57,593 bases of DNA. Source: Flavobacteriales bacterium (lineage in GTDB: Bacteria; Bacteroidota; Bacteroidia; Flavobacteriales_D; Sanyastnellaceae). Shown here in pieces: positions 6,445 to 45,452 of the stretch. The stretch covers positions 1 to 57,593 of the forward strand of contig CANHWU010000001.1 of the NCBI GenBank assembly GCA_947464415.1, in the 5' to 3' direction. The notes under the pieces are model-generated. The model saw only the letters and a list, made by a program, of their open reading frames with translations. It had not been told where the DNA came from and did no database searches. A program made the translations under genes and the position numbers. Numbering within the stretch: position 1 is the stretch's first letter; each line of letters begins with the position of its first letter.

Positions 6445-6448
6445 ACCA

Positions 6449-9281: not shown

Positions 9282-12200
9282 TTACCGGCCAATCAGAAAT
9301 TGTGCCGTTTTTGTTACAGTGTTATTTTGTATCACGATTGTATATAAACCATTAGACCAGTTGGATAGTTCAATTCGTTGATTCGGTTGGTCATTTACAA
9401 GGCTGGATAGGAGTTTACTGTTTGCATCATAGATGAGAATTCTTGCTGGAAGGTGGGTGTTTTCAATGATCAAGTAATCTTGCACTGGATTGGGAAAAAT
9501 AAGAACATTACTTTCCAGCTCCAGCAAGCCGGGGGCTATATAATCTGTCGTAATGGTGGCCTGACCTTGGCAGCCAAATTCGGTAATGGCTATCATTTGG
9601 TATTGAATGCCCAGATCTGCAGATAGACTCAAGGTATTATCAAATAATGGCTGATCCGTGTTATCAATGCTCCATTGGGTAATCCATTGACTTATTCCAT
9701 TATTGCATGAGACAATATTATTGGTCTCTGAAAGAACAGGTTGCGGAGTAGGATGAATGGTTACTGCAGTATTCATTGTTCCTTGTGTGGAGGTAGTGTT
9801 GGAGGTACATACCATCGAAATTTGCTGATTACCTTCTGTTCCATAAATATGTTCCGTTGGATTGCTCACCCAGTTATCATTTGTGCCATCTCCCCAATTT
9901 ATTTGGCAACCCATCCAATCTAGGCCATCCGTGAGATTGTGGAGAGTGATCGTATCAAATTGACAGATAGAGTCATTTTCGATTTCAAAATAAGGTTGTA
10001 TAATCCAAAGTGAATCAGAGCTACTTGTGCAACCGTTTTGAGCCATGACATTCAATTGATATACTCCGTTAGAATAATTGTTGCCGTTCCAAATGTTCCA
10101 ATGGTAATTGACTGCATCCACGATGTCGTTATTGTATAGATTCCAGTCAAAGCTCAGAGAGTTGGAACAGTTTGTACAGATTACTTCTGGGAAAGTATAA
10201 GTAATTTCAGGAATTATGGGAGATTGAAGAATCAAAATGGAATCAGTGAAGTAACCGGTGGAATATTCGTTGTAACAAATCATGGAAAGTGAATATTGGC
10301 TCTCCAGGCCATACAAATGGGTAAGAAGGTTGGTATTGGCCGTTTGATTAGATCCATCTCCCCAAAGCATAGAGCAGTTAAAATCATTATAGTTTTGGGT
10401 GATGTTCTCTAGTAAGACGGAATCTGCAGAACAAGAGGCGTCATTCATCAGAATGAACAAAGGTTGAATCACAAAAATGGAGTCACTGAAGACGGTGCAA
10501 TTGAAGTTGTTCGTGGAAGATATTTGATACCAACCATTATCATAATTGAACCCGTTGAAATTGTAATGAGTAGCACCATTAGACGAGCTTATCGGGGTAT
10601 TTTCAAGATACCATTGATAAGTATTCATGCCATTATAATTGTCACATTGCACCTCGCCGATTTCATAATGAACCAATGGTTTTTCTGGAATGGGATTCAT
10701 TTCAATTTCCAATGAAAAAGAACCTTGAGTATAAGGGTTGGTACAACTGAGTTCAATGTTATAATTCAGGGTGTCACCAAATACATGGTAATTGTTCACG
10801 CTCATTAATGTTTCAGAGGTTCCGTCTCCCCAATTGATATTGCAGTTGCTCAGCCAATGGGAGGTTTCATCCAGCAACCAAGTGGTGTCTCCTGGACAGA
10901 CGGTAGGATCGATGATATTGAAATAAGGCTGCAGAATTGGAAGTGAATCTGAATGCTGAGTACAACCTTCAATATTGGTGGTAGACAATGAATACCACCC
11001 ATTTTGGTAGGATCCATTGAAAAGAGTATAAAGTTGAGAATTATTCTCATTAGGCAATGGAGTATTGTTGTATAACCATTGGTATTGTTGCAGAATATTG
11101 AAATTTTGACAATCCAATTGTCCAAAAGTGTAAGTAATGACTGGAACGTCTGGAATAGGATCAGTGGCTATCGTCACAAAGTAGGAGCCGCTGGTGAACA
11201 TATTCTGGCAGAAAAGTTCAATTTCATAGGTGCCGCTATCAGCGAAAATATGATAATTGAACTCATTAGAGATCACTTCTGAATACCCATCACCCCAAAT
11301 TATTTCACATGTGTTCTCCCAGAATTGTGTTGTGTTTTGAAGAGTTGTACTATCTCCGGGACAAACATGGATGTCAGCAATTACAAATGAAGGCTGAAGG
11401 ATGGGTAATGAGTCAGAAAGAGTAGTACAATTGTCGGGGTTGGTAGCCGCTGCCATGTACCAGCCATTGTTGAAAGCGCCGTTGGAGCTTATATTGATTA
11501 CCGGGCTATTTTGATCGAAGAGTAGGTCTTGATTCAGATACCATTGGTAAGTATTTTGATTTTCAAAATTGCTTATTTCCAGATCAGGCATAGTGTAGAT
11601 AAGTGAGGGAGCTGCTGGAGCTACAAAAACAAATATAGAGTCCTCTAGTGAGTAGCTTTGGCCAAACCCGGAGCATTCCATCAAAATAATGTATTGGCCG
11701 CTCATCGAGTAAGCGTGATTGACATCATAGTTTGAAGTACCGTCCCCCCAATGAATCAAGCAATTCATGCCGGGTTCTTGGTCCGTGTAATCCGTAAATC
11801 CAATATTGATATTAGGACAGATGCTATCCACTGAGATTTGAAAATAGGGTTCTGCGACAAAGATGGAATCGGATTGCACCAGACACCCTACACCATTACT
11901 TGCGATGACATTGTACCAGCCATTGGAGTACGAAGCTCCATTCCAAATATCGATACTAAGATCTTGCTCGTTCAGAATATTCAAGTGGTTATTTTCCCAC
12001 TGATAATTGATGTTTGCTTCCGGATTGTTGATTGTGATTATCCCGGAATCATAGTCAAGGATGGGAATTAATGGTATTTCATTGACAAGGATATTGGAGA
12101 TGTATTGTCCAGTATCTAAATTATTGAAACAAACTAATTCAATATCATAGCTACCAGGAATAAGGTAGGAATGATCCAAGGCGACTGGAGTTATTACTGA

Positions 12201-15200
12201 CTCTATGCTACCATCTCCCCAATTGATAGAGCAACTGATTCCGGATAGATTGATGGAGTTGATATTCGCTTGAGCTGATTCATTCTGGCAGATGGTGTTG
12301 GATTGCAAACTGAAAAAGGGTTGAACGACAAATTCAGTATTGGAGATTGAAGAGCATCCTAGATCAGAGGAGGAGGTCAATTGGAAATCTCCAGAAAGAA
12401 ATTGACCTGTTTGAAGGTTGTTGAAACTGGTGTTGTTTGCGTTTTGGATATTGGCATTGTTCAATGTCCATTGATAGTTTACCCCTCCCGTGCAATTGGC
12501 GCAAGAAAGTACTCCATTGTTTTCTGTAATTATTGGCGTCAAAGGCGTAGCATTGACAATGATGTTATTTAATTGTGCAGAGGAGGGAAATCCATCAAAA
12601 TAATAATTGTAAGTGATACTAAAGTTTCCGGGTTCTGAAAAAGTGTAATTGAAAGATGATCCACAATTATAAATGGTGTCACCCGAAGAAAAAATGAATT
12701 CACAGACAGACTCGGGGTATGCAACCGTTTGATTGATAACATTGATGGTCAAGGGGTCACATCCCTCAGTGGTAGCGACGAACAAAGAGGCCTCTAAGTA
12801 CATGCAGCTTCCATCGTTGAAATTGGTCGTAGGATCAAAGTTAATAGCGGCTACATCAGTACAACCGTAATACAGACACGATCCATCATCTTGATTGGCC
12901 AAACTGGAGAAATTATTTGCAATGGTATCTGTGCATCCCAGATAAATACAACTTCCGTCGTTAACGGTTGCAGTGGAATCATAATTCGCTGCCACAGTAT
13001 CCGTGCATCCCAAATAAAAACAAGATCCATCATCAATGGTGGCTGAGCTGTTGTAATTACCCGCCAATGTATCCGTGCACCCTTCGATTTGGCAGGAACC
13101 GTCATTCACCGTGGCGGTTGGGTCGAAATTGACCGCGGTAGAATCAGTACATCCGAGGTAAAAACATGAGCTGTCACTGATATTGGCATTGCTATCGAAA
13201 TTATCCGCGTTGGGATCAATACATCCTGGATAGAGACACGATCCATCAGGGATACTGGCAATAGGATTAAAATTTTGCGCTAGCGAATCAGTGCAGCCCT
13301 CATAAACGCATGTTCCATCATCTTGATTGGCAATATTACTGAAGTTGAAAGCGGTTGTGTCAGTGCAACCTAGGTATATGCATGTGCTATCCTCTTGATT
13401 AGCGTTTGGATTAAAGTTGTCAGCTATAACATCGGTACATCCAAGAATTATGCATGACGAATCAGGAGTGTTGGCCGTAGGATCGAAGTTGATGGCGATA
13501 GGATTGGTACAACCTAAGAAAATACAGGGTACAATTTGAGTGGCCAAGGGGTTGTAATTATCGGCGAGTGGATCTAAACAACCAATGTATACACAAGAAC
13601 CATCATCCCAATTCCATACGGAGCTATAATTGTCATATTGTTCTTGAGTACAACCAGGAAAATCACATGACCCGTCATTAACATTTGCCAGAGGGTTGTA
13701 ATTCATAGCAGAGTCAACGGTACAACCGGGTATTTGGTTTTGATTGAAAGTTTGCACTCGAACTTGAGGAATCCTCAGTAAATAATACAAGTCTGATTCG
13801 TCGGGAAAATTCAGATAAGTAGTATTTTCGGGGGCTGCTCCGCTTCTCGCTACATAAAATGGCTGGCCTAAAGATATATTTCTAACCATGGCGGCAACAC
13901 AACCGTCAAAGGGATTGATTTCTGCATCTCCGGTTTCGGGATTAGTGTCGTCAGGATAATTAAGTGTGGCTTGATTGGTATAAACAGGATTGATGAGGGG
14001 AAGGGTAATCATTTTTTCTTCTCCTAGCCCATTGATGTCAGCTAAATTCACTGTGTAGGTTTCCGTGGAGGCTAATATAGAATCCATCGTAGGGATATAG
14101 ATATGACCTTGAATAACTGTACCAGGTAGGGTTCCTTCTGCAATTCCTACTTGAATATTGGCTATCCTCTTTCCATTGCCATATGTAAAGCAATATATAT
14201 TTCCGATCTCGGTGGTGGTTGTATTGGGATAAATGGAATTAGCATTGTAAAGATTATCGGCGGGCCCTTCGTCACGCGCGTAGGTGTATGGGGTAATATC
14301 AAAGTCTAAAGTATCGAAATTATTAGTGAGGTCTTCGTCTGTCTCTGCTTGTGAAATTTCGAAAGTGACCTCATAATTGCCTACACCGTCATTGATGATA
14401 TCGGATGCATTCGTTAAAGTGGTATTTTGTCCAAACCCTAGAGTATTTTGAGATATGGACTGATCATAGATGGGTACTCCATTTTTTAATATTTTGTTTT
14501 GAAGTACAATATTATTTTGGGAGTTAGTGCCGAGGTTGGAAATGGCACAATTGGGCACGGCGGTAGGAAGAAAATTAAGAGGATACTGGTCATACATCAT
14601 ATTAGATACAAAATTGACCGTTGGATCGTATGCGGTGAATTGCGCATTGGAGATGGCAATGTTATTGGCAGAAGGAGAGTATAAAGAAATGTCATCAATG
14701 CTCCATGAATAGTAAAAGCCGTCGAATAAAAATTTGAATTGAACATTGGATTGACCGGCAGCTAGAGCAGTTATGTAGGCACTTTTCCACTCACTGTTGG
14801 GGCCTGTGTACCCATTGCTTTGAGTGAGTGAACTTATTTCTTGCCAAGTACCCCCCCCATTCGTGGAGATTGGAACATACATGGTACCTACATAATTTCT
14901 AAGCTGTTGGTTGAAGGTGATGTATACTTCTGAAACTGAACTTAGGTCTATACTATTGGTGATCATCCATGCTGAATGGGGTCCAGGATCTGGCCCACTT
15001 CCGATGTTTCCGCAAGTTGTGCTTGGATCATCCCAAAAATTAGAATCGAAAATCATAAAACCATTGCTAGAGGAGGGAGATTGAAGAGCAACGGTTCCTG
15101 CGCTGCATGAACCTCTTGATCCGATATTGTTATCAGGAATGGTGTTAGGTCCCCTGTATTCCCATTGTCCGATCCCAGAGGTACTTCCAGTTGTCCATCC

Positions 15201-15347
15201 TGAAGGTAATCCATTTGCAAAGTCCCAAGAGGTTATAGGAGTGCCTAGCACTTGGCTGAAAATGTTTTCTGCCAATAGACACAAGGAAATAAATACAATG
15301 AGTCTTTTCAAAGGTTCTGCTTTTTCCAAAAATACATTTTTTTTCAT
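9282..15347 (-). CDS. Giant (2021 aa) modular cell-surface/adhesin-like T9SS cargo protein
   Basis: Signal peptide, then an N-terminal MAM/choice-of-anchor-J-like region (SWDFANGLPSGWTT...). This is followed by 13 x 24-aa GCTD..A.NF....A..DDGSC.Y repeats and 7 modules carrying PKD-like WGDG and YQW...NGWY...GC motifs. The C-terminal type-A T9SS CTD reads IFPNPVQDYLII...GLYTIVIQNNTVTKTAQFLIGR. Confidence 0.85.
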   Translation of the reverse strand: MKKNVFLEKAEPLKRLIVFISLCLLAENIFSQVLGTPITSWDFANGLPSGWTTGSTSGIGQWEYRGPNTIPDNNIGSRGSCSAGTVALQSPSSSNGFMIFDSNFWDDPSTTCGNIGSGPDPGPHSAWMITNSIDLSSVSEVYITFNQQLRNYVGTMYVPISTNGGGTWQEISSLTQSNGYTGPNSEWKSAYITALAAGQSNVQFKFLFDGFYYSWSIDDISLYSPSANNIAISNAQFTAYDPTVNFVSNMMYDQYPLNFLPTAVPNCAISNLGTNSQNNIVLQNKILKNGVPIYDQSISQNTLGFGQNTTLTNASDIINDGVGNYEVTFEISQAETDEDLTNNFDTLDFDITPYTYARDEGPADNLYNANSIYPNTTTTEIGNIYCFTYGNGKRIANIQVGIAEGTLPGTVIQGHIYIPTMDSILASTETYTVNLADINGLGEEKMITLPLINPVYTNQATLNYPDDTNPETGDAEINPFDGCVAAMVRNISLGQPFYVARSGAAPENTTYLNFPDESDLYYLLRIPQVRVQTFNQNQIPGCTVDSAMNYNPLANVNDGSCDFPGCTQEQYDNYSSVWNWDDGSCVYIGCLDPLADNYNPLATQIVPCIFLGCTNPIAINFDPTANTPDSSCIILGCTDVIADNFNPNANQEDSTCIYLGCTDTTAFNFSNIANQDDGTCVYEGCTDSLAQNFNPIASIPDGSCLYPGCIDPNADNFDSNANISDSSCFYLGCTDSTAVNFDPTATVNDGSCQIEGCTDTLAGNYNSSATIDDGSCFYLGCTDTVAANYDSTATVNDGSCIYLGCTDTIANNFSSLANQDDGSCLYYGCTDVAAINFDPTTNFNDGSCMYLEASLFVATTEGCDPLTINVINQTVAYPESVCEFIFSSGDTIYNCGSSFNYTFSEPGNFSITYNYYFDGFPSSAQLNNIIVNATPLTPIITENNGVLSCANCTGGVNYQWTLNNANIQNANNTSFNNLQTGQFLSGDFQLTSSSDLGCSSISNTEFVVQPFFSLQSNTICQNESAQANINSINLSGISCSINWGDGSIESVITPVALDHSYLIPGSYDIELVCFNNLDTGQYISNILVNEIPLIPILDYDSGIITINNPEANINYQWENNHLNILNEQDLSIDIWNGASYSNGWYNVIASNGVGCLVQSDSIFVAEPYFQISVDSICPNINIGFTDYTDQEPGMNCLIHWGDGTSNYDVNHAYSMSGQYIILMECSGFGQSYSLEDSIFVFVAPAAPSLIYTMPDLEISNFENQNTYQWYLNQDLLFDQNSPVINISSNGAFNNGWYMAAATNPDNCTTLSDSLPILQPSFVIADIHVCPGDSTTLQNTTQFWENTCEIIWGDGYSEVISNEFNYHIFADSGTYEIELFCQNMFTSGSYFVTIATDPIPDVPVITYTFGQLDCQNFNILQQYQWLYNNTPLPNENNSQLYTLFNGSYQNGWYSLSTTNIEGCTQHSDSLPILQPYFNIIDPTVCPGDTTWLLDETSHWLSNCNINWGDGTSETLMSVNNYHVFGDTLNYNIELSCTNPYTQGSFSLEIEMNPIPEKPLVHYEIGEVQCDNYNGMNTYQWYLENTPISSSNGATHYNFNGFNYDNGWYQISSTNNFNCTVFSDSIFVIQPLFILMNDASCSADSVLLENITQNYNDFNCSMLWGDGSNQTANTNLLTHLYGLESQYSLSMICYNEYSTGYFTDSILILQSPIIPEITYTFPEVICTNCSNSLSFDWNLYNNDIVDAVNYHWNIWNGNNYSNGVYQLNVMAQNGCTSSSDSLWIIQPYFEIENDSICQFDTITLHNLTDGLDWMGCQINWGDGTNDNWVSNPTEHIYGTEGNQQISMVCTSNTTSTQGTMNTAVTIHPTPQPVLSETNNIVSCNNGISQWITQWSIDNTDQPLFDNTLSLSADLGIQYQMIAITEFGCQGQATITTDYIAPGLLELESNVLIFPNPVQDYLIIENTHLPARILIYDANSKLLSSLVNDQPNQRIELSNWSNGLYTIVIQNNTVTKTAQFLIGR
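9528..12791 (-). repeat. Coding tandem repeat: 7 bipartite modules of ~151-157 aa (PKD-like + Ig-like)
   Basis: The W of WGDG falls at aa 1043, 1200, 1351, 1506, 1662 and 1818, with a degenerate first copy near aa 887. YQW-type motifs alternate with these at aa ~958, 1115, 1267, 1422, 1577, 1734 and 1890. Confidence 0.75.
12798..13730 (-). repeat. Coding tandem repeat: 13 units of 72 nt (24 aa; one unit is 23 aa), two Cys per unit
   Basis: Covers aa 540..850 of the giant protein. The GC dipeptide recurs at residues 541, 565, 589, 612, 636, 660, 684, 708, 732, 756, 780, 804 and 828. Unit consensus is (L/P)GCTDxxAxNFdpxAxxxDGSCxY. Confidence 0.85.
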
Positions 15348-19206: not shown

Positions 19207-19680
19207 ATGGAAAATTATACCCTCTTCAAGGCCAAAATAAAGGCCTATTGCGATAAGGCAGAACGATGTCATCATGATGTTAGAAATAAATTATTTCTTT
19301 GGAAAGTTCCTGCTGAGAGGCATGGCGAGATTATAGCGGATTTAATCACTCAGAATTTGCTGAATGAAGAGCGGTACGCTCTCGCATTTGTGCATGATCA
19401 CCATGCATTCAGGAGGTGGGGAAAAGAAAAAATTAGACAAGGTTTGAAGAAAAAGCAAGTTTCCTCTTTCTTGATTGAGTTTGCTCTCAAAAGTGTACAA
19501 TTTGAGAGTGAAGAGGAGAATTTACGCACCTGCGCTGAAAAAAAATGGACGAGTTTGAAAGATGAAAATCAACATAAAAGAAGAGCTAAATTAATTCGTT
19601 ATCTCTACGGAAGAGGATTTGATATGGAGGCTATTCAAAAGGCAGTGAGGAGGGTAACGGGAGATGCTGAATTTGAATAA
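19207..19680 (+). CDS. recX: Regulatory protein RecX
   Basis: 157 aa. YCDKAERCHHDVRNKL start and repeated three-helix pattern (LNEERYALAFVHD..., LIRYLYGRGF) typical of RecX. Confidence 0.8.
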   Translation: MENYTLFKAKIKAYCDKAERCHHDVRNKLFLWKVPAERHGEIIADLITQNLLNEERYALAFVHDHHAFRRWGKEKIRQGLKKKQVSSFLIEFALKSVQFESEEENLRTCAEKKWTSLKDENQHKRRAKLIRYLYGRGFDMEAIQKAVRRVTGDAEFE

Positions 19681-24959: not shown

Positions 24960-24976
24960 TTGTAAATCCATTACAA
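24960..24976. promoter_or_regulatory. Perfect inverted repeat TTGTAA-N5-TTACAA upstream of the SRAP/polymerase operon (candidate operator)
   Basis: TTGTAA (24960..24965), ATCCA spacer, TTACAA (24971..24976). It ends 23 nt before the SRAP ATG. Confidence 0.25.
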
Positions 24977-24998: not shown

Positions 24999-25811
24999 AT
25001 GTGCGGACGCTACATTGTCGTTACTAAAATCAAGGAAATCGAGAAGAAATGGGGGTTAAAGGCCCCGAGTGGTTTTTCTTTTGAACCTTCAGCGAATTTA
25101 TCGCCGGGTCAAAAGGGAATGGTCGTCACTCAGCAAGCTCCCAAGGAAATTCAGTTAATGCGATTTGGTATGACACCGCACTGGTCGAAGGACGGTAAAA
25201 TGTTCATCAATGCTCGAAGTGAAGGCGATCATAATTCTGATAATGATGCTCAATATCGCGGAGCCAAGGGGATATTGGAGAAGCCAAGTTTCAGAAAGCC
25301 GATTCGCTCCCAGCGATGCTGGGTGATTGCGGATGGATTTATTGAGGGGCCAGAAAAAGTTGGGTTGAACCAGCCGTTTTGCGTTTATCCTAGAAAGGGC
25401 GATGGACCGATGATTTTTGGGGGTATTTGGGATACTTATCAAAAGGGGGAGACGGTAGTGGAGTCCTTTGCTATAGTGACCACCGCGGCCAATGAGGTCT
25501 TAAGACAAATTGGTCATCATCGTTGTCCGTTGATTTTAGACAAGGAATCGGCGATGGTGTGGATCGATGAGCAATCTACTTTGAGCGATGTGACGGCATG
25601 TATGAAAGTGCCTAAGGCGGAATGGTTAAACGCATATCCCATTGACTCCGCCATCAAGTCTTCTCAAATGAATGGAAAAGATTTGCTCAAACCCATTGGT
25701 GATAGGGTAATCAAGGAGTTTGAATACGAGGTCTACCAAGATATTGAGATGTTTGGAATGGGAGAAACAAGAGGGAGAAAGAGAAGGGATGATCAATTGA
25801 GTTTGTTCTAA
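24999..25811 (+). CDS. SOS-response-associated peptidase (SRAP / YedK / HMCES family) with C-terminal extension ending QLSLF
   Basis: 270 aa. MCGRY start (Cys2), FINARSE, CWVIADGF, TTAAN and GHHRCPLIL motifs. A ~45-aa basic/acidic tail ends in RKRRDDQLSLF. Confidence 0.9.
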   Translation: MCGRYIVVTKIKEIEKKWGLKAPSGFSFEPSANLSPGQKGMVVTQQAPKEIQLMRFGMTPHWSKDGKMFINARSEGDHNSDNDAQYRGAKGILEKPSFRKPIRSQRCWVIADGFIEGPEKVGLNQPFCVYPRKGDGPMIFGGIWDTYQKGETVVESFAIVTTAANEVLRQIGHHRCPLILDKESAMVWIDEQSTLSDVTACMKVPKAEWLNAYPIDSAIKSSQMNGKDLLKPIGDRVIKEFEYEVYQDIEMFGMGETRGRKRRDDQLSLF

Positions 25812-25817
25812 AGTGTC

Positions 25818-28817
25818 ATGATTGGACATAGTTATTTCTCTTTGCGATATGGGGTGTTGGCACCCAAGGCAGTATGCGAAACTTTCCGAGAGTTGGGTTT
25901 CCCGGTGGGAATGTTGGCAGATGTAAATGCTACTTCCGCTATTTGGGATGTTTGGCGATGGTCTAAAAAAGAGGAGTATCCTGTGTTGACGGGAGTGGAT
26001 GTAAAAAATGGAGTGCGAACCGTCTATGTGGCCATTCCTCATGGAGAAGCTGGTTGGTTGGAAGTGAATGAGTGGTTGAGTTATCATTTGCAATCCCAAC
26101 GGCCATTTCCGGAACGGGCGCCGGAATGGAGGCAAGTGACGGTGATATATCCCATAGAAACCATACGGGATTGGCCCATGGAAGTGATGAAGGAACATGA
26201 ATGGGTGGGAATAGGGCACTTGGATATTCATAAATGGCGCATTTCAAGATGGAATAAATATCCGCGCTGCATGGCTTGTCCCGTTTTTAGTTTTCGACAT
26301 CAAAGAGATTTTAATATTCACCGATTGCTGAGGGCAGTGGATAGCAATGCTCTGTTGAGTAAACTGTCTGTTTTGGATCATGCTGGAATGAATGAAAAAT
26401 TTATCTCATTTTCAGATCTGCAATTGGCATTTTCCGAGTATCCTGAGTTGTTAGAAAATACAACAAGAATTTTTCAAGAAAATTTCTTGCTTCAGCAGCA
26501 AACGGATTTGTCCAGTATGAAAAATCAGCAAGTGTATGGAACAGATGGGGAGACTGATTTTGCTTTGTTGAAGGATTTGTGCTGGGAGGGAATGTCCTAT
26601 CGATATCCCCATGAAGATTTGCAAAAAAAAGACTCGGTTATTGTCAGCCGGTTGCAAAAGGAATTGGAGTTGATCCGGGAGAAGTCATTCGTGGCTTATT
26701 TCCTGATCAATTGGGACATTACTTCCTACGCCAGAAGCAAAGGTTATTTTTATGTAGGAAGGGGCAGTGGAGCCAATAGCATTGTAGCCTATTTACTCAG
26801 AATTACAGATGTGGATCCCATTGAGTTGGATTTATATTTCGAAAGATTTATCAATCTATATCGCCAGAATCCTCCTGATTTTGATATAGATTTTTCTTGG
26901 ACTGACAGGGAGGATATGACTCAATACATATTTTCTCGATTTCGAAATGTAACTTTATTGGGCGCCTATAATACTTTTCAATATCGCGCTGCGGTGAGGG
27001 AAATTGGGAAGGTATTTGGTCTTCCAAAGGAGGACATTGATATGTTATCCGATGGAAAGTATCAGGTGAATCAGTTAGATGAGTTGCAGCAATTGACTTT
27101 GCGGTATGCAGGATTGATTCAAGATTTTCCCAATGCGCTGGCCATTCATGCCGCTGGAATTTTGATTACACAAAAATCCATTCATCATTATACAGCCACT
27201 TTTTTACCTCCCAAGGGATTTCCGACCACGCAATTTGATATGCTCGTGGCGGAGGATATTGGGATTTACAAGTTTGATATTTTGTCCCAACGAGGATTGG
27301 GTAAAATCAAAGAATGCATGGAGATTATCGGTTATAATCAGCCTCATCGATTGACTTTTGATATTCATCATATTGCTTTGTTTAAAAGGGATGAAGCCGT
27401 GAAAAACTTGATCCGATCGGCGCAGGCCATCGGATGTTTTTATGTGGAATCACCGGCCATGCGTATGTTATTAACGAAGCTGCAGGTGGATGATTATTTG
27501 GGATTAGTAGCAGCGAGTTCTGTTATTCGACCCGGTGTTTCAAAAAGTGGCATGATGCGGGAGTTTATCTTGCGTCAACGCTTTCCTGAAAGAAGAAAAA
27601 CCGCTCATCCCGTTTTATTGGAGATCATGCCAGAGACCTATGGGGTGATGGTGTATCAAGAGGATGTGATCAAAGTAGCGCACTTTTTTGGTGGTTTGAG
27701 TTTGGCAGAGGCCGATGCTTTGAGAAGAGGCATGAGTGGGAAGTTTAGAGGAAGGGAGGAGTTTGAAAAAGCCAGGGATTCATTTATTGAGAATGCATTG
27801 TCCAAAGGAAATGAACTGTCGGATATTATTGAGATTTGGCGCCAGATCGAGAGTTTTGCTGGCTATGCATTTGCAAAAGGTCATTCTGCTTCCTATGCCG
27901 TGGAGAGTTTTCAAAGTTTGTATCTCAAAGCTTATTTTCCGTTGGAATATATGGTGGCCACCATCAATAACGGAGGAGGATTTTATTCCGTGGAATTTTA
28001 TGTACAAGAGGCCAGAAGAAATGGTGGAATCATTGAAGCACCTTGTTTACAGAATAGCAGCGCAGAAACTGTTATTCGCGATAAGGTGATTTATTTGGGA
28101 TTAGGAATGATACGAGACTTGGAGCATCCTGTCATTGAAAGGATTCTTCAGTCCAAGAGGCAGGAAGGTGATTTTACAGATTGGGATGATTTTTTGGAGC
28201 GCGTGAGCATTGGTTTAGAGCAATGCGTTTTGTTGATCAGAATCGGTGCTTTTCGATTTACAGGGTTCAATAAAAAGGAATTATTATGGAAAGCGCAGTT
28301 GCATTTTATGCAAACTCGGAACGCCATTTCTTCCTCTCTTTTTGGAGTGGAGAAGAAGCATTTTCAGATTCCAGATTTACCGCATTATGCATTGGAGGAC
28401 GCCTATGACGAGATGGAGATTTTGGGATTTCCTCTGTGTTCTCCTTTTGATTTGATAGAAGAGGCTCAGAGGAATTTCATTGATGCAGAAATGTTGCCAC
28501 AGCAATTGGGAAAGGTGGTACAAGGTATTGTGTATTTTATTACATGTAAACCCACGCGCACAAGCAAAGGGGAGCGTATGTATTTTGGAAATTTTTTAGA
28601 TGTCAAAGGAGGGTTTGTGGATACGGCTCATTTTCCGATTCCTCAAAAACGAAACATGGATTGGCGAGGACAAGGGGTATATTGGATCAAGGGAAAGGTA
28701 ATGGAGGAATTTGGAGCCTGGAGCATAGAGGTGGACGAGATGAGAAAATTGGCCTATATGGACGATCCGCGATACAGTGAATTAAGAGCTGCAGAAAAAT
28801 CGAGATTGAAAAAGTGA
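25818..28817 (+). CDS. dnaE2: Error-prone DnaE2-type DNA polymerase III alpha-subunit homologue
   Basis: 999 aa. Degenerate PHP N-terminus (MIGHSYFSLRYGV; LADVN). Palm motifs GRGSGANSIVAYLLRITDVDP and PDFDIDF. Finger region AIGCFYVESPAMR and VIRPGV. YQEDV, HhH-like LSLAEADALRRGMSGK, and an OB-like C-terminus. Confidence 0.85.
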   Translation: MIGHSYFSLRYGVLAPKAVCETFRELGFPVGMLADVNATSAIWDVWRWSKKEEYPVLTGVDVKNGVRTVYVAIPHGEAGWLEVNEWLSYHLQSQRPFPERAPEWRQVTVIYPIETIRDWPMEVMKEHEWVGIGHLDIHKWRISRWNKYPRCMACPVFSFRHQRDFNIHRLLRAVDSNALLSKLSVLDHAGMNEKFISFSDLQLAFSEYPELLENTTRIFQENFLLQQQTDLSSMKNQQVYGTDGETDFALLKDLCWEGMSYRYPHEDLQKKDSVIVSRLQKELELIREKSFVAYFLINWDITSYARSKGYFYVGRGSGANSIVAYLLRITDVDPIELDLYFERFINLYRQNPPDFDIDFSWTDREDMTQYIFSRFRNVTLLGAYNTFQYRAAVREIGKVFGLPKEDIDMLSDGKYQVNQLDELQQLTLRYAGLIQDFPNALAIHAAGILITQKSIHHYTATFLPPKGFPTTQFDMLVAEDIGIYKFDILSQRGLGKIKECMEIIGYNQPHRLTFDIHHIALFKRDEAVKNLIRSAQAIGCFYVESPAMRMLLTKLQVDDYLGLVAASSVIRPGVSKSGMMREFILRQRFPERRKTAHPVLLEIMPETYGVMVYQEDVIKVAHFFGGLSLAEADALRRGMSGKFRGREEFEKARDSFIENALSKGNELSDIIEIWRQIESFAGYAFAKGHSASYAVESFQSLYLKAYFPLEYMVATINNGGGFYSVEFYVQEARRNGGIIEAPCLQNSSAETVIRDKVIYLGLGMIRDLEHPVIERILQSKRQEGDFTDWDDFLERVSIGLEQCVLLIRIGAFRFTGFNKKELLWKAQLHFMQTRNAISSSLFGVEKKHFQIPDLPHYALEDAYDEMEILGFPLCSPFDLIEEAQRNFIDAEMLPQQLGKVVQGIVYFITCKPTRTSKGERMYFGNFLDVKGGFVDTAHFPIPQKRNMDWRGQGVYWIKGKVMEEFGAWSIEVDEMRKLAYMDDPRYSELRAAEKSRLKK

Positions 28818-28836
28818 TTTTATTTATCTTGCCGCT

Positions 28837-31167
28837 ATGAATGTGAAGCGGAGAGGTATTGTTTGGGTCCTTTTGATGTTTGTATGTGCTCCTTTTATTG
28901 CGCAAGAGTCTGCTCGGCTTTGTGTAATAGACGAGGAGCGTTTGTCGGCTCTTCCAGGTGTACTCATTTACTGCAATGATAAGCCTGTGGGAGTGTCAAA
29001 TGTGGAAGGGTGTTGGAATAAAAGTATGGGACAACCACAAGATCAATGGCGATTGAAGATGATGGGATTTGTGGATACGGTATTTTTTTGGAAAGAGGCT
29101 GTGGATTTGACAATTAAAATGCGACCTCGGGATTTGGAATCCTCCACACTTACCATCAGTACCCATTTATACGGGAGGCCATTGCAGGAAAATACGCAGT
29201 CCATTGAAAGCATTGATGGTAGGGATATTATCCGAAAGCGAAATGTGGATGCAGCTGCGGCACTAGAGCGTGTTCCAGGTGTTACCATCATCGATGGTCA
29301 GGCGAGTTTTAGAGGGGGTAGTGGTTATTCTTACGGTGCGGGATCGCGAGTGATGTTGGTGATTGATGACATGCCTTTATTGACGGCAGACAGAAATGAT
29401 ATCAAGTGGAATTATGTAGCCACAGAAATGATTGATAAGATGGAGGTGGTAAAGGGAGCCTCTTCCGTGCAATATGGATCCTCTGCGCTCAATGGGGTAG
29501 TGCATGTCAGAACCATGGCGCCTCGTGAGAAGCCGCATCTGATGTTTCAAACTTATACTACCAGTTTTTCAAAGCCTTCCGTAGAGGGTGCTACTTGGTG
29601 GAATCAAGAAGATACCCCTAATCCGCGACAAGGGGGGATGTTGCTTCCTACTCAAAGTAATTTTCCTTATCAAGCAGGTTATTTGATTCGATATGGCCAG
29701 CGCACGGGCAATATTCTATGGATTGTGGGAGGTAGTTTGCATCAATCACGGGGTTGGATCAAAAAGGAAAAGGAGAATCGGATGCGGTGGACACTCAAGA
29801 CTACTTATGTTTTTCCAAAAAATTCCCGGTGGAGGTTGGGCTTGAATGCGCAAGTGATGCGTCAAAATCAAAGCTCTGTATTGTTTTGGGCCAATGATAC
29901 TACGGGTGCATTTTTGCCCAATGGGGATGGCGTTGTAGTAAATTACAACGACTTATGGATGAATATCGATCCTTGGACTTCCTATTACGATAAGTTTGGC
30001 AATCATCACCAACTCAAAACACGCTTTTATGCCTCGTATTTTCCAAGTACCAGGAGTTTCAGACCGGGCCTTCATTTGCGTCACGGAACCTATTCATTTC
30101 ACAGGAAAACGAGTTTTGGTTTAGATTGGATTACGGGTGTAAATGCCAATTATTTTGCCTTTGGAGATGCTGCTTTTGGAGGACGGCATGTGGGGAATTT
30201 TATTGGTGCGTTCACACAAGCGGATTGGTCATGGCGCAATTGGCACTTCTCAGGTGGAGCCCGTATGGAGTCGTTTCAGGTGGATAGTATCAAAGTAAAA
30301 GCCATTCCAGTGGGTAGGTTGGGATTGACCTATTCTATCAATGAGCATCATATTTTAAGAGCATCTTATGTGGAGGGATTCAGATTTCCTTCTCCTGCGG
30401 AGCGTTATGTTAGATACACCATTGATCAGATAAATATTTACGCCAATCCTGATGTAGCTCCAGAGCGGGGATGGAATGTGGATCTCGGTTATAAGGGCAT
30501 TTATGAAAAAGATCAGTTCCAGGCTACCTGGGATGCGGTATTGTTCTTGACTCGATACCGTGATTTGATTGAATTTACTTTTGGTAGATGGGGATTGCCA
30601 ACAGATCCGATGTTTGGTTTAGGATACAAAAGTGTGAATGTCAGTAACGCTCAAGTGGGAGGAGTAGAACTCAGTGGTAATGCCAATGGTAAAATTCATG
30701 GTTGGGAAATTCATGGATTGATGGGGTACACCTATTTACTTCCTGTTGATTTGGGAGTATATCCAGGAGGAAATAATCTCCTTCATTACGCAAGTGATTT
30801 GGTAACGGAATTTAGCAGCAAAGATTCTGCGGATTATTTGTTGCGATACCGCTTCAAGCATATGGTCAAGGCCAATGTGGATATTCAAAAGGGGAAATGG
30901 GGAGTGGGAGTGGGGTATCGATATTACAGTTTCATGCAAAAAATAGATCCTGTACTAGAGTGGTTTGTTGACGGATTGGCTCATTATCGTCAGACACAGA
31001 CACATGGAACGAATATTTGGGATGCTCGTTTTTTTTATCAGGCTACAGACAAGATGAGTGCTAGTGTGCAGGTACAAAATGTGTTTAATGCCTTTTATGC
31101 AACCAGGCCCGCCAAACCAGATGCCCCGCGAAATATATCGTTGCAATTGACTTGGAGAATAGACTAG
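28837..31167 (+). CDS. TonB-dependent receptor
   Basis: 776 aa with a signal peptide. Plug motifs ALERVPGVTIIDG, GGSGYSYGAGSRVMLVIDDMPL and VVKGASSVQYGSSALNGVVHVRT, then a beta-barrel. Paralogue of 39735..42155. Confidence 0.85.
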   Translation: MNVKRRGIVWVLLMFVCAPFIAQESARLCVIDEERLSALPGVLIYCNDKPVGVSNVEGCWNKSMGQPQDQWRLKMMGFVDTVFFWKEAVDLTIKMRPRDLESSTLTISTHLYGRPLQENTQSIESIDGRDIIRKRNVDAAAALERVPGVTIIDGQASFRGGSGYSYGAGSRVMLVIDDMPLLTADRNDIKWNYVATEMIDKMEVVKGASSVQYGSSALNGVVHVRTMAPREKPHLMFQTYTTSFSKPSVEGATWWNQEDTPNPRQGGMLLPTQSNFPYQAGYLIRYGQRTGNILWIVGGSLHQSRGWIKKEKENRMRWTLKTTYVFPKNSRWRLGLNAQVMRQNQSSVLFWANDTTGAFLPNGDGVVVNYNDLWMNIDPWTSYYDKFGNHHQLKTRFYASYFPSTRSFRPGLHLRHGTYSFHRKTSFGLDWITGVNANYFAFGDAAFGGRHVGNFIGAFTQADWSWRNWHFSGGARMESFQVDSIKVKAIPVGRLGLTYSINEHHILRASYVEGFRFPSPAERYVRYTIDQINIYANPDVAPERGWNVDLGYKGIYEKDQFQATWDAVLFLTRYRDLIEFTFGRWGLPTDPMFGLGYKSVNVSNAQVGGVELSGNANGKIHGWEIHGLMGYTYLLPVDLGVYPGGNNLLHYASDLVTEFSSKDSADYLLRYRFKHMVKANVDIQKGKWGVGVGYRYYSFMQKIDPVLEWFVDGLAHYRQTQTHGTNIWDARFFYQATDKMSASVQVQNVFNAFYATRPAKPDAPRNISLQLTWRID

Positions 31168-31764: not shown

Positions 31765-34530
31765 TTATCTTACCACAAAACGGGTGATATCTGTTTTGTT
31801 TTCTGAATGGTTTACGCGCACTGTATAAATTCCAGCGGGAAGGGTTGCTGTTGGTATTTCACAGATAACGTTGTTGATGACAGTATTCAATACTGATTGT
31901 CCCGCATTATTAAAAATTTGAATGCGTTGCATGGTATTCCCCTCTGCAGATATGATCACAGAGTGAGGATGGTGTTGGACATTGAGTGAAAATGGAATTT
32001 CATCTTTTAGTATTTCTGGATCTGGACATTGTCCATTTGTACAATTTTGTAAAAGAAATGCGGTGCCGTGGAAGCTACCATTGAAGGGGATTCTTACTAG
32101 GTCACCGTTTTCAATTTTTTGATGATACCCAGGATTAACAAGGATATGTTCTTGTTCTCTTATGATATACACAGGCTGAGAGACAAGATAGTTGAGTAAT
32201 GTCCATTGATGATCTTCATCTAAATGATTAATTTTTACATAAGCATATTCAAAAGTCTCTTGATCATTGGATAAGTCCAGGTACACGGGAATCACGTTTT
32301 CATTTTCCAAGGATATGGAGGTTGACATCAACATGATTTTTTCTTCAGATAGAAGAGACAGATTGAATTTATTATTGGTGAGATCATACAAATCAATTAC
32401 ATCCATTCCTGCATCGAAATTGGGGCTGGAGGAAAGGTCATTCGAAATGGTAGAAACATCACGAAGTGAAAGTTGATTATCTAAAAGCTGGAGGTCTACG
32501 GCAGGTGCATACGATGATCGCTCAAATAATTTTGGATTACATCTATTGACTTTGGCATTTTCCGTAAAGGTTAAACTTTGATTGGTGGTAGAGGCATGTA
32601 CAAAAAAGCTTTGGCTGTGAGGAATGAATTTTCCAATACCATCCGGGTAGGACGTTGTACTATTGAATGCTCCATTGTTGGGGTTGTAAAAAAGATAATT
32701 GTTAGTTGCATAGTCAAAAACATAATACGCCCCAATATCCGAACTAGCCGCTTCAACGATATCCCAATTGATTTCGCTGGGATAAGGGTTGGCCAATAAA
32801 TTTCTTCCAAAAGATTCGATTTCACCAGAAGGAGTGTAAGTCATGGGGATATTTACGGTTCCTTTCATGAAAAATCCAGAAGGGTTGACCGTAAGAGCAG
32901 GTGAATTGGCATATACATTAAGCCCCAATTGAGGATTGATGACTCCTGTGCTCGGATTGATTACGGTAAATCCAACATTTGACCCTCCCACTAATGTTTC
33001 GTTATACCATTTAATGCTGTTAGAAGTCATGGTAATAGTGGGGTAGGTAATTCCATTGACAGTTGCTGATGACCAAGCAGCGTTGGGGCTAAGACCTGTT
33101 GTCAGAGCAGCATTGGAATACAAAGGACAAGATAAAAATAACCAGCTTGCTCGTGACTCTGAAGGGATGTATCGCTGCAGGGTAATGGGCCCCACGACAT
33201 CAGAGTTTGCACCAATACTTTGTATGGAACCAGAGCAGCTCGCATTCGATAACAGGGCTAAACTTCCTCCTGTTCCATTGGTAGTGAGGGTGCCCGCTGT
33301 GGGTATAACGGCAGCTGTGACAAAGACTGGAGCGTTGAGGGTAACACCAGCAGCATTGTTGATTTGAAGTTCCATGAACCGTGTTCCTGAAGAGCCTCCG
33401 ATTGTTTGAGCGTTCGTTCCACCCATGATGACACGACAACCTGCCGTACAACAAGTGGGGTCAAAATTACCATTGAAAGAAGCGGAGTTGTTGTTGTTGG
33501 TCCAATTTCCAGTGAGGGTGAGGGTTTGAGCAGTACTGCCTGCTGTGAGGGTCCCACCAGCATTTAAAGTTACATTAGCCAAGGCAAAGCTTCCGTCAAT
33601 AGTGATGTTGTGAGAAATTACTAACGAACTTGAGGAATTGAATATGGGAGTGGTGGGCGAACCGCCGTTGGTCAATGACCAAGTGTTGGCTCCGTTCAAA
33701 TTCCCGTTGTTGATGCTGTAATAGGTGGCGGCGGCCGCCACTTGGTTGAAACTAAAATTATCGAGGTACATGTTTCCTGCTAGCGTAGAAGATGCGGTAG
33801 CATTGGTGGGCCAACGGAGTGAAGCTCCCACAAACGAGCAGTTCGTATGAGTGTTATCGGTGACTGGATTGGTAATGACCTCATAGGTTCCATCATTATT
33901 GAAATCGGCATAAACCGTCCAAGCAGCGCTGGCGTTTCTGATGACTTTTATTCCAATGGTGTTATAGCCAGCTGTACTATTCCCATAATTGCCACCGTAA
34001 GAAGGGCCGGGAACGGTCACTAAATCCGAGGCTGCACTATTGGTAATCCGCATCAATTTGAGTGGTCGAGCAGAGGCGGTGCTTGAAACAGGATTAACAC
34101 CAATGGCATATCCATTGATTCCGTTGAGGCTGGGGACGGATATATCCACCACGTTCGATGTATTAGGCATTCTCATATTGGTACCATTGGCGGCAAGAAC
34201 AATCCAAAATTTTTGGCTAGCACTCACCCCTTTTCCAGAGGTTTTAAGCTTAAACTCCCATGTCGTAGTGGCACCGGAAAGGTTAGAAGTGGCGGCGGGT
34301 ATGGCTCTTGATACATTGGAGAAATTTGTACTCCCAGAAGTAGTCCCCGTGCCATTATGTTTCAATGACTTTGTTCCTTCTATGGGCGTTGTAGTGGAAG
34401 CGGTCCACTCCCCATTCACCCCGGCAGTCCAAGCGTTTACACTTTCAAAATCATCCAATATTTGTCCAAATGTCAATGTGGAAATTAATACTGTACAGAT
34501 CAAGGAAATCAATTGAGGTAATGCTCTCAT
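31765..34530 (-). CDS. Large secreted T9SS cargo protein of unknown function
   Basis: 921 aa with a signal peptide. Thr/Asn/Ser/Gly-rich beta-type sequence and an N-terminal concanavalin/LamG-like feel (ILDDFESVNAWTAG...). C-terminal CTD is IQIFNNAGQSVL...AGIYTVRVNHSENKTDITRFVVR. Confidence 0.7.
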   Translation of the reverse strand: MRALPQLISLICTVLISTLTFGQILDDFESVNAWTAGVNGEWTASTTTPIEGTKSLKHNGTGTTSGSTNFSNVSRAIPAATSNLSGATTTWEFKLKTSGKGVSASQKFWIVLAANGTNMRMPNTSNVVDISVPSLNGINGYAIGVNPVSSTASARPLKLMRITNSAASDLVTVPGPSYGGNYGNSTAGYNTIGIKVIRNASAAWTVYADFNNDGTYEVITNPVTDNTHTNCSFVGASLRWPTNATASSTLAGNMYLDNFSFNQVAAAATYYSINNGNLNGANTWSLTNGGSPTTPIFNSSSSLVISHNITIDGSFALANVTLNAGGTLTAGSTAQTLTLTGNWTNNNNSASFNGNFDPTCCTAGCRVIMGGTNAQTIGGSSGTRFMELQINNAAGVTLNAPVFVTAAVIPTAGTLTTNGTGGSLALLSNASCSGSIQSIGANSDVVGPITLQRYIPSESRASWLFLSCPLYSNAALTTGLSPNAAWSSATVNGITYPTITMTSNSIKWYNETLVGGSNVGFTVINPSTGVINPQLGLNVYANSPALTVNPSGFFMKGTVNIPMTYTPSGEIESFGRNLLANPYPSEINWDIVEAASSDIGAYYVFDYATNNYLFYNPNNGAFNSTTSYPDGIGKFIPHSQSFFVHASTTNQSLTFTENAKVNRCNPKLFERSSYAPAVDLQLLDNQLSLRDVSTISNDLSSSPNFDAGMDVIDLYDLTNNKFNLSLLSEEKIMLMSTSISLENENVIPVYLDLSNDQETFEYAYVKINHLDEDHQWTLLNYLVSQPVYIIREQEHILVNPGYHQKIENGDLVRIPFNGSFHGTAFLLQNCTNGQCPDPEILKDEIPFSLNVQHHPHSVIISAEGNTMQRIQIFNNAGQSVLNTVINNVICEIPTATLPAGIYTVRVNHSENKTDITRFVVR

Positions 34531-42155: not shown

Positions 42156-42290
42156 ATACATGACGTCTTGAATTAACATCGGCAAGATAATAATTTGAGT
42201 GTTTTTTAACCGATAATTTCAGTTTTTTTCTTTAATTATGCAACAAATATGGATTCCTTGGCGTAGACCACGTATCTTATAGATTTGCTT

Positions 42291-45200: not shown

Positions 45201-45452
45201 GGAGTGGAGGAAACGGAACTTTTCCATTGGACGATCTATCCCAATCCTGCACAAGGGGTGTTATATGTGCAATCTGATTTCTCTCAGAAATGTACATTTC
45301 GGATTGTGAATGGCTTGGGTCAAATTGTGCATGTTGGTCAGTTGGGTGTTTTTAATACATTGTCCATAGATGATTTGGCTTCAGGAATTTATACCTTTGT
45401 TGTTGAAACGGAGGAACACAATATTCAGGCAAGGCACTTTGAAAAACAATAG
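42291..45452 (+). CDS. SBBP beta-propeller-repeat protein with Ig-like region and T9SS C-terminal sorting domain
   Basis: There are about 8 repeats of the pattern G...DAFI(A/V)KF...G...W(A/S)TY(Y/F)GG. A Cys-containing Ig-like stretch follows. The CTD reads WTIYPNPAQGVLYVQS...GIYTFVVETEEHNIQARHFEKQ. Confidence 0.75.
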   Translation: MKQSILLIIACLSFFGVSYAYDLKQGFVENRGQWMTSDREVYFENHDHQVSFRITSLGLEYEWAKPNGASLDLNRVYLEPLGGKLGAFQKMEAVNDNFYYTSGREVVAKAYKKIVLKDLYPLIDWVIYDTEWGIKYDFIVHPGGDPRDIQLNWRNAEGVKITGDGGMTVDGKLGEISDKAPIAFQGDQKVWVQYVLKGKRFGFDLGDFDPKQDLIIDPEVIWSSYYGGEVFDDITGITSDVDNNIYITGTTTSTTVISGNAVGGNIHQANMNGSRDAFIAKFNAQGQRLWATYYGGEGQDEGNTIAIDQNGFVYMGGTTTSTMLVASFGFQPTLSGIRDGFIVKFNGNGQRVWGSYLGGSGSEYVLGITVDNEGRVLVLGETTSSDYPVFGGGDNVYGGQGDVFITCINGMASLYWSTFFGGENIETAGGIGYDALNDRIYITGSTASVTGIASSGQQTTYGGGLKDGYIAAFNELGVMSWATYVGGVGTDIAEQCSSDIYGNIYLVGTTSSNGFATVGAFQPSFAGGVSDAFMAKYSSTGILNWRSYFGGPGADVGSSMVADAVGNIYFGGQTNSAGLAINGFQTSVQGGTDLFLTKFTVEGTPQWATYYGGAGNEELRFLSIDPMQKILFAGSAASPLLASNGWQSTLNGGQDGIFGRIEDCPNPYVTIAIDGELEFCEGEIVTMAAGGADSYVWSTGDTTEFIEVEETQWITVRGLMDGCQGISAPLYVDAKPLPEVSIFFVGETVYCTPDIYLELFPTVTPDSLVAFWEWTHDNSQSDPLIVTEEGSYTVSVMAINECEASSGVSISLAETPDVVMALATDSICVSAQPLNLVGLPLGGTFVSDGGGIQGSTFNPGLAGGGAHYIHYEINDPVSGCTVSTPEEFIDVLFAPTELFLPTDTICFNGFPVLMTGVPAGGFYTGIGVSGNQFYPNIAGSGWHAITYNYVDPQGCTNRAVRNIYVDPCGVGVEETELFHWTIYPNPAQGVLYVQSDFSQKCTFRIVNGLGQIVHVGQLGVFNTLSIDDLASGIYTFVVETEEHNIQARHFEKQ

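Follow-up and report, generated by a model that had tools for sequence, protein, structure and literature searches.

Abasic sites are guarded universally by SRAP proteins, and to our knowledge a link to the sliding clamp of replication has been described for the human member, HMCES, only. Does a bacterial SRAP protein reach the clamp as well, and if so, on its own account or on behalf of a polymerase? The question is raised by a gene in the first 57,593 nucleotides of contig CANHWU010000001.1 from a Flavobacteriales bacterium (assembly GCA_947464415.1), which we analyzed at full length and call the window. The gene encodes an SRAP protein whose last five residues, QLSLF, are of the type that binds the bacterial β clamp, DnaN, and it is followed directly by the gene of an accessory DnaE2-type DNA polymerase. 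A first-pass annotation had proposed that the peptide tethers the SRAP protein to DnaN, as a bacterial analogue of HMCES, and that it provides the polymerase with a clamp contact of which the latter seemed devoid. From the analyses described below, we consider it likely that the protein carries a disordered tail that docks on DnaN through QLSLF, whereas the service to the polymerase finds much less in its favor.

The SRAP protein and its C-terminal tail

The gene and the elements of its product that matter for the argument are the following:

24999..25811, + strand: SRAP gene (SOS-response-associated peptidase, or abasic-site crosslinking protein), 270 residues, Pfam PF02586
25737..25763, + strand: QDIEMF-GMG, an invariant Gly-Met-Gly after Φ-x-Φ-F, SRAP residues 247-255, in the predicted disordered tail
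25770..25787, + strand: basic patch RGRKRR, then acidic DD, SRAP residues 258-263
25794..25808, + strand: QLSLF-COOH, predicted β-clamp (DnaN) binding motif, SRAP residues 266-270, at the extreme C-terminus

The match to PF02586 covers residues 1-221 and profile positions 1-213 of 214 (E 6.9e-44), with a score of 150.4 bits that lies above the curated threshold of 27.1. The protein begins with MCGRY, which puts a cysteine at residue 2, and its active-site set (Cys2, Asn71, Glu116, His173) is intact by sequence and kept in the alignments of 120 homologues. Its closest relatives of solved structure are a Bacteroides protein (2F20), HMCES and YedK, the YedK structures matching residues 103-234 in phmmer searches (E about 3e-11). 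Judging from the conserved catalytic residues, the protein is catalytically intact, and it would be expected to form the same covalent thiazolidine crosslink with abasic sites of single-stranded DNA that HMCES, with the same catalytic domain, forms through its Cys2.

Beyond this core, an extension of about 45 residues had been annotated. The extension is present, but its length ranges from about 30 to 49 residues depending on the yardstick: the core ends at residue 221 by Pfam, at 233 by the NCBIfam YedK model, and at about 240 by the ordered part of an AlphaFold2 model. The latter, computed from the 120-sequence alignment, has a mean predicted local distance difference test (pLDDT) score of 86.7; it is confident for the core (residues 1-240), where most 10-residue blocks score 88-96, and falls below 50 at residues 244-253 and 261-270. 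The last 30 or so residues are thus predicted to be disordered and, given the low scores at 261-270, QLSLF forms the end of this predicted disordered tail. The end of a disordered tail is the usual setting for clamp-binding peptides.

The C-terminus reads ...GMGETRGRKRRDDQLSLF*, the asterisk marking the stop, and the last residues before the TAA are ...YQDIEMFGMGETRGRKRRDDQLSLF. As the first-pass annotation had described, positions 25794-25808 read CAA TTG AGT TTG TTC and are followed by TAA at 25809-25811, and the linker ETRGRKRRDD precedes the pentapeptide. Also its assignment to the canonical clamp-binding peptides holds: these follow the patterns Q-Φ-x-[LM]-[FL] or Q-Φ-x-[LM]-x-[FL], of which QLxLF is the best binder, and QLSLF matches the former pattern as well as the QLxLF class (PMC11139829). 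According to the same review, the glutamine is important, yet not essential, and Gly or Arg at position 2 is less favorable. The window's peptide belongs to the same motif class as those of DNA polymerases II (QLGLF) and IV (QLVLGL), which bind the clamp cleft and are likewise C-terminal, with a free carboxylate, and of UmuC (QLNLF), where the motif is internal (PMC11139829). These three are polymerases, however, whereas the predicted client in the window is a lesion shield that forms DNA-protein crosslinks.

To estimate how often such a peptide arises by chance, we used the amino-acid composition of the 40 window proteins (18,507 residues). The expectation for QL[SD]LF is 0.036 occurrences in all of them and 7.7e-5 occurrences exactly at a C-terminus; the SRAP protein, at its end, has the one occurrence that is seen.

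Conservation and recurrence of the terminal motif

For comparison, we collected 186 distinct tails of the subfamily from database hits and from 80 genome loci (designated by L numbers). The 120 nearest database homologues are all from Bacteroidota, are about 270 residues long and share a common C-terminal extension. The orthologues at 64-99% identity all end in Q[LM][STK]LF, some with one extra Asp; the motif is thus conserved in all close orthologues. Across the full set, the tails fall into these classes:

Qxx[LMI]F among the final 11 residues: 76 of 186
hexapeptide Q-x-x-L-E-F: 16 of 186
LEFEL-type ending without Gln: 16 of 186
xxLF without Gln: 7 of 186
canonical QL[DE]LF only just before the GMG motif: 8 of 186
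...PWG: 18 of 186
none of these: 45 of 186

The penta- and the hexapeptide form are met as a pair in the endings QTSLF (P0095) and QTSLEF (P0068 and P0100). In a neighbor-joining tree of the SRAP cores, the terminal motif is found in three clades: A2, which includes the window's protein, B, whose genes stand alone, and C, whose genes lie in three-gene operons. Most of the GMG-family tails listed have an [RK]-rich patch after the GMG, beyond which the linker to the motif varies between clades in both length and sequence (RRDD, RRTPPQ, KNDQGK), while the motif itself persists. As a control, we inspected 667 other open reading frames of at least 150 residues in the related loci. Eight of them end in Qxx[LMI]F, seven being radical-SAM proteins and one a truncated SRAP; since only members of the cassette formed by these genes carry such endings, the ending is specific to it.

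The motif also recurs outside the subfamily. An exhaustive HMMER search of 1.84 billion cluster representatives yielded 150 SRAPs (representing clusters at 50% identity), down to about 31% identity, of which 108 are full-length. Fifteen of these 108 have a Qxx[LMI]F ending, whereas shuffling the last 30 residues of each protein predicts 0.17; nine of them close with the phenylalanine itself, and six have one or two further residues behind it. The GMG tail is absent from ten of the 15, which are short YedK-like proteins outside the window's subfamily, with endings such as ...VQLNLFE, ...GGQISLF and ...NQMNLFDE. The two motif-bearing representatives that we looked up, L087 and L088, are stand-alone genes with no polymerase nearby. 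Because ten of the 15 belong to other SRAP subfamilies, the sequences indicate that the clamp-type ending arose repeatedly in bacterial SRAPs.

Could the ending nevertheless be a chance or neutral feature without function? Its loss in some lineages would fit this explanation, but the low expectation for the window, the excess among the cluster representatives, its absence from every unrelated control frame and its persistence through linker turnover make it very improbable. Together these observations support the view that C-terminal QLSLF is a short linear motif under selection, of the type that binds the clamp, and that it would bind DnaN.

Several points weigh against the docking that we propose. 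The sister clade of the window's proteins, A1 (L012-L020/L024), is without the terminal motif and ends in RKRKEEE or RKRKNKE, and three members of the three-gene clade (L026, L027, L030) are without it as well; some genomes can therefore do without the motif. In many of the distant variants, position 2 is occupied by Gly or Arg (QGELF, QRRLF), which is a less favorable residue. All relatives are metagenome-assembled sequences, and our counts ignore kinship, except for a Fitch parsimony count on the neighbor-joining tree, which gives 6-7 state changes for gain and loss of the terminal motif.

The tail contains a second conserved element. GMG, with a basic patch after it, occurs in every SRAP of about 270 residues from Bacteroidota, stand-alone or operonic, and is conserved more strongly than QLSLF: the 120 homologues show no variation at G253 and M254, and at least 90% conservation at G255. 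Across homologues, GMG is preceded by Φ-x-Φ-[F/Q/E]. A phenylalanine in the last of these positions tracks adjacency to dnaE2 (38/43 vs 3/35), on only two or three independent transitions. In clade A1, which is without the terminal motif, the residues before GMG are QQLDLF or QQLELF, a canonical clamp peptide, where the window has QDIEMF. By its sequence, DIEMF is possibly a second, internal clamp-like site, without Gln. Pfam gave no match in four tail peptides at E-values up to 10. Two candidate relationships of the GMG element were rejected. The resemblance of FGMG to the FGKG of the RecA N-terminal motif did not hold in an hhalign comparison of 103 tails with RecA N-termini (probability 0.1%), and 'AAGMGARTIG' in the Y-family polymerases (PolY) discussed below is a coincidence, as the PolY sequences vary at this point (AAGMEAR, AAGINAR, AATLGAR; hhalign probability 0.1%).

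The presence of an invariant GMG in the same tail suggests a region with several partners, and other clades end in different conserved peptides (...YDPEWPWG, ...LEFEL). Both would fit a functional motif that engages a partner other than DnaN, such as a hydrophobic groove of RecA, SSB, the polymerase or an adaptor of a protease, or that acts as a C-terminal degron limiting the amount of SRAP. We nevertheless regard such a role as improbable: QLSLF agrees exactly with the clamp consensus that binds best and with the motif of neighboring PolY proteins, endings of the LEFEL class still conform to the hexapeptide clamp form QxxLxF, and the tail is unrelated to the RecA N-terminal motif and to the PolY C-terminus by the hhalign comparisons.

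The alternative endings are found in Bacteroidales. One of them, ...Q-D-[FYL]-L-E-F-E-L, occurs in stand-alone genes (L032, L038, L047, L052, L064-L066, L082); the other, ...F-x-Y-D-P-E-x-P-W-G, occurs in SRAP genes that are convergent to a PolY-DnaE2 pair (L033, L042, L061, L086). Five contigs with an SRAP-DnaE2 cassette of the Bacteroidota type (L020, L026, L040, L051, L071) are labelled Comamonadaceae, Gammaproteobacteria or Luminiphilus and are probably mis-binned or mislabelled.

The adjacent polymerase and the operon

The second question is whether the motif serves the SRAP protein or the polymerase encoded next to it, which contributes two features:

25818..28817, + strand: DnaE-type C-family DNA polymerase, 999 residues, 6 nucleotides after the SRAP stop
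28329..28343, + strand: SSSLF then Gly, the degenerate internal clamp motif of the polymerase, residues 838-842

The polymerase has Pfam matches to DNA_pol3_alpha, finger and HHH_6, and its catalytic segments PDFDIDF (353-359) and KFD (485-487) are present. The PHP domain is degenerate and can hardly be recognized (E 0.051), and there is no tau-binding end. Neither curated NCBIfam model reaches its cut-off, the score being 388 bits (cut-off 939) for the error-prone model NF004225 and 455 bits (cut-off 1002) for the DnaE model NF004226; we therefore call the protein accessory DnaE2-type, a divergent DnaE and not a canonical ImuC. It has no imuA or imuB neighbors, as the 57.6-kb window contains no RecA-like or Y-family gene; lexA and dnaN are likewise absent from the window. 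Homologues at 42-62% identity to the polymerase adjoin PolY in L026-L086.

According to the first-pass annotation, this polymerase had, by eye, no QLxLF-like motif. This was not borne out, since SSSLF occupies the canonical internal clamp site. In a phmmer comparison with solved structures, residues 163-817 aligned to residues 208-893 of the E. coli Pol III α subunit; the clamp motif of the latter, QADMF-G, lies 27 residues beyond the end of the alignment, and ISSSLFG of the window's protein (residues 837-843, bases 28326..28346, within the peptide NAISSSLFGVEK) lies 21 residues beyond it, at the corresponding position. Among 42 polymerase homologues, [LM]F is nearly invariant in this column, while the preceding positions vary (QATLF, EQSLF, DQGMF, QASLF, PTLF). 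Gln is found at position 1 in few of the 42 (QATLF, QASLF, QRSLF, QPTLF) and is mostly absent from the clade of the window's polymerase. As it has neither the Gln nor an aliphatic second residue, SSSLF is predicted to be a weak binder.

A weak motif in the polymerase raises the possibility that the SRAP protein is the clamp-anchoring subunit of an SRAP-DnaE2 translesion complex, similar to ImuB in mycobacteria or PolY in other Bacteroidota, and that QLSLF chiefly loads the polymerase. ImuB provides a precedent: it is a non-polymerizing partner encoded together with a DnaE2-type polymerase, and its clamp motif brings the DnaE2 complex to the clamp (PMC10421592; PMC12926913). The two genes in the window are 6 nucleotides apart on one strand and, as described below, their clade has lost PolY, which leaves the polymerase without another operon partner. 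In addition, operonic SRAPs have the motif more often than others. Of 79 loci in which the SRAP gene is complete, 41 have a polymerase homologue directly downstream on the same strand, with a gap of at most 300 nucleotides; a dnaE2 homologue holds this place in 27 of 36 SRAPs with terminal Qxx[LMI]F and in 14 of 42 others (Fisher p = 3e-4, uncorrected for phylogeny).

The same loci, however, contain the main objections. A Qxx[LMI]F ending is found in twelve loci that have no dnaE2 within reach (QRRLF plus few acidic residues counted), including clade B and L081, so that the motif, although enriched beside dnaE2-type genes, is not conserved only there: it is present in the stand-alone SRAPs L081, L087, L088 and those of clade B, and most of the motif-bearing cluster representatives come from other subfamilies. 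Conversely, clade A1 keeps the two-gene SRAP-dnaE2 operon without the terminal motif. With [LM]F nearly invariant at its internal site, moreover, the polymerase retains a degenerate motif of its own, and the idea that the SRAP protein supplies a missing contact is not supported. A role as loading subunit for the polymerase thus appears rather unlikely, and the presence of the motif in SRAPs without dnaE2, together with its absence from the A1 operons, argues for a general link between SRAP and the clamp. We also considered whether the motif could be a by-product of constraints on translation initiation of the downstream gene, and rejected this, as it persists with gaps of about 10 to about 500 nucleotides and in stand-alone genes.

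The more distant loci provide further context. In 19 of them, a Y-family polymerase gene lies directly upstream of the SRAP gene, giving the order PolY, SRAP, DnaE2, which is often followed by a radical-SAM gene (as in L084). The Y-family polymerases beside related SRAPs have the motif pattern Q[ILMV][NDSG][LM]F: their C-termini carry QINLF, QMDLF, QLDLF or QLNMF just before a helix that resembles the RecA N-terminal (RecA-NT) motif (E 6e-4 across 27 columns when hhalign compared the C-termini of PolY with RecA N-termini, the positive control for the rejected GMG comparison). Because the neighboring PolYs have QxxLF-type motifs, bona fide clamp clients of this lineage use the same kind of peptide that the SRAP protein carries. 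In the three-gene operons, PolY, SRAP and radical-SAM protein each have their own Qxx[LM]F-type peptide, and that of the DnaE2-type polymerase is degenerate; this suggests a set of tools taking turns on one clamp, and it looks more like independent clamp clients than like an SRAP that anchors the polymerase.

We note some details of these genes. The three-gene loci come from more distant Flavobacteriales (L026-L084); an example of the PolY gene is L084 6714..7928, and PolY looks active. Its C-terminus has the order QxxLF, RecA-NT-like helix, and a conserved tail ...ARTIGxxNPFNGxxPxLLANR. In the Bacteroidales locus L086, a PolY-DnaE2 pair is convergent to SRAP and lies beside a LexA-like gene with HTH_3 and S24 domains. 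The radical-SAM protein, which is absent from the window, has about 350 residues, a CxxxCxxC motif and an SplB/PA0069-like N-terminus (RGAQSNPxNRF). Its gene adjoins dnaE2, directly downstream in the loci inspected (L084 11917..12987, also L021, L026, L029, L030, L051, L067), and its endings are clamp-type (GQLSLF, EQLTLF, QYPLFV); it is the sole non-SRAP class with such endings among the 667 control frames.

In the window's clade (L001-L025), the operon has no PolY gene and consists of SRAP and DnaE2. One could envisage that PolY was lost from an ancestral PolY-SRAP-DnaE2 cassette and that the clamp-anchored SRAP protein now labels the lesion and passes the primer end on to the DnaE2-type polymerase, whose clamp motif would be vestigial. 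We consider this hand-over unlikely; if true, a two-protein SRAP-DnaE2 system, with QLSLF and perhaps DIEMF-GMG, would link the shielding of a lesion to translesion synthesis on a single clamp.

Proposed action at the clamp and related systems

Tethering of the SRAP protein to DnaN in its own right is well supported in silico, by the predicted disorder of the tail, the conservation of the motif in orthologues, its recurrence across clades and subfamilies, and its match to the PolY peptides. The order of events at the fork that we infer is as follows. QLSLF would dock in the hydrophobic cleft of a DnaN clamp left on duplex DNA at a stalled primer end, and docking would hold the SRAP protein at the junction of single- and double-stranded DNA, where an abasic site in the template blocks synthesis. 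This junction is the substrate geometry reported for HMCES in a preprint (bioRxiv 10.1101/519595). There the protein would cap the abasic lesion ahead of any cleavage. As the clamp is a dimer, its second cleft would stay free, and the co-expressed polymerase could use it on the same clamp. Since the 6-nucleotide gap implies translational coupling, the SRAP protein and the DnaE2-type polymerase would be made together, probably after DNA damage, and act at the same clamp.

For damage-dependent expression, the region upstream of the SRAP gene offers a candidate operator:

24962..24974, no strand assigned: palindrome GTAA-N5-TTAC, candidate operator, 25-37 nucleotides upstream of the SRAP start
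24960..24976: the extended perfect palindrome TTGTAAatccaTTACAA (TTGTAA-N5-TTACAA), 23-39 nucleotides upstream of the SRAP ATG

The palindrome lies just before a -7 box (TACTTTG) of the TAnnTTTG type and overlaps the likely promoter. It has the same 4-N5-4 layout as the LexA-like site of Bacteroidetes, CTAA-N5-TTAG (PMC8565304), from which it differs in the outer base; the latter sequence does not occur in the window. For GTAA-N5-TTAC, the window has one occurrence where 0.61 would be expected, a count that is not significant. In related loci, the palindrome is imperfect in L001 and L010, and only its right half is found in L002-L011. COG2135, to which SRAP belongs, is reported to be part of the LexA-like regulon in several Bacteroidetes species (PMC8565304), and LexA-like genes are found near homologous operons. 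Taken with the palindrome at the promoter, these observations lead us to expect that the operon is induced by damage. Scans for σ70 promoters and intrinsic terminators around the operon, which are ill-suited to Bacteroidota, gave counts that did not differ from those of shuffled sequences.

The remaining window contains Bacteroidota housekeeping genes, including proteins with type IX secretion (T9SS) tails, TonB receptors, RecX, DXS and RNase R. Upstream of the SRAP gene lies a divergent gene for an ADP-heptose epimerase. Downstream, a TonB-dependent receptor gene (28837..31167, + strand) starts 19 nucleotides (28818..28836) past the polymerase stop and, as there is no terminator-like hairpin in this gap, read-through transcription into it is possible. 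The gene for RecX, a regulator of RecA, is located 5 kb upstream of the operon (19207..19680, + strand). Proteins with a C-terminal sorting domain for type IX secretion are encoded at 9282..15347 (- strand), 31765..34530 (- strand), 42285..45452 (+ strand), 6377..7987 (+ strand) and 52270..53076 (- strand); this set includes a 2021-residue PKD-domain protein and a 920-residue protein without other Pfam match. We regarded as spurious an antisense open reading frame of 201 codons across the SRAP/polymerase junction (25626..26231, - strand), for which Pfam gave no match.

How does the proposed tethering compare with known systems? The closest parallel is human HMCES, which requires its C-terminal PCNA-interacting protein (PIP) motifs for function at the replication fork (PMC9067407). 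Like the window's protein, as predicted here, it combines an SRAP core with a disordered tail that bears a docking peptide for the sliding clamp. The two differ in that HMCES uses a PIP box and PCNA, whereas the window's protein would use QLxLF and DnaN. As the tails are not homologous, clamp tethering in HMCES and in bacteria would be convergent. E. coli YedK has the same fold and catalytic residues, but its gene is not known to be adjacent to a polymerase gene. The NCBIfam YedK model (222 positions) ends around residue 233 of the window's protein, and the solved YedK chains (226-246 residues) match up to 233-234; YedK thus has no tail with GMG, basic patch and QLSLF.

ImuB resembles the SRAP protein in bearing a clamp motif beside a DnaE2-type polymerase, but it is a Y-family polymerase that has become inactive and that contains RecA-NT and ImuB-C modules, whereas the SRAP protein has an unrelated fold, is predicted to be catalytically active on DNA, and belongs to a family in which the motif also occurs without a polymerase neighbor. 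A DnaE2B-PolY-RecA module of Bacteroidetes is already known (PMC12926913); the main text of that study does not list SRAP, nor does it mention a clamp motif on SRAP, and the operon of the window's clade differs from the module in being without PolY. The location of SRAP genes beside UmuCD, ImuA-ImuB-DnaE2, DinB or 'a DnaE paralog' has been described as SOS-linked (Aravind, Anand and Iyer 2013, PMC3765255), in a study whose main text does not contain the word 'clamp' and describes neither the C-terminal motif nor the GMG tail. In full-text literature searches, we found no publication that connects the β clamp with YedK or bacterial SRAP. Thus, the association of SRAP with DnaE2, ImuAB, DinB and UmuCD is known, and the clamp motif on a bacterial SRAP appears to be new.

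Bacteria, as their sequences suggest, probably tether SRAP to the replication clamp in the way that humans tether HMCES to PCNA. If this is true, SRAP represents a new class of client on the short list of β-clamp partners, and bacteria and eukaryotes arrived convergently at tethering SRAP to the clamp. The picture of the damage-tolerance cassette of Bacteroidota would be refined by clamp peptides on several of its members, and the five-residue tail would provide a simple handle on where and when the shielding of abasic sites acts relative to translesion synthesis.

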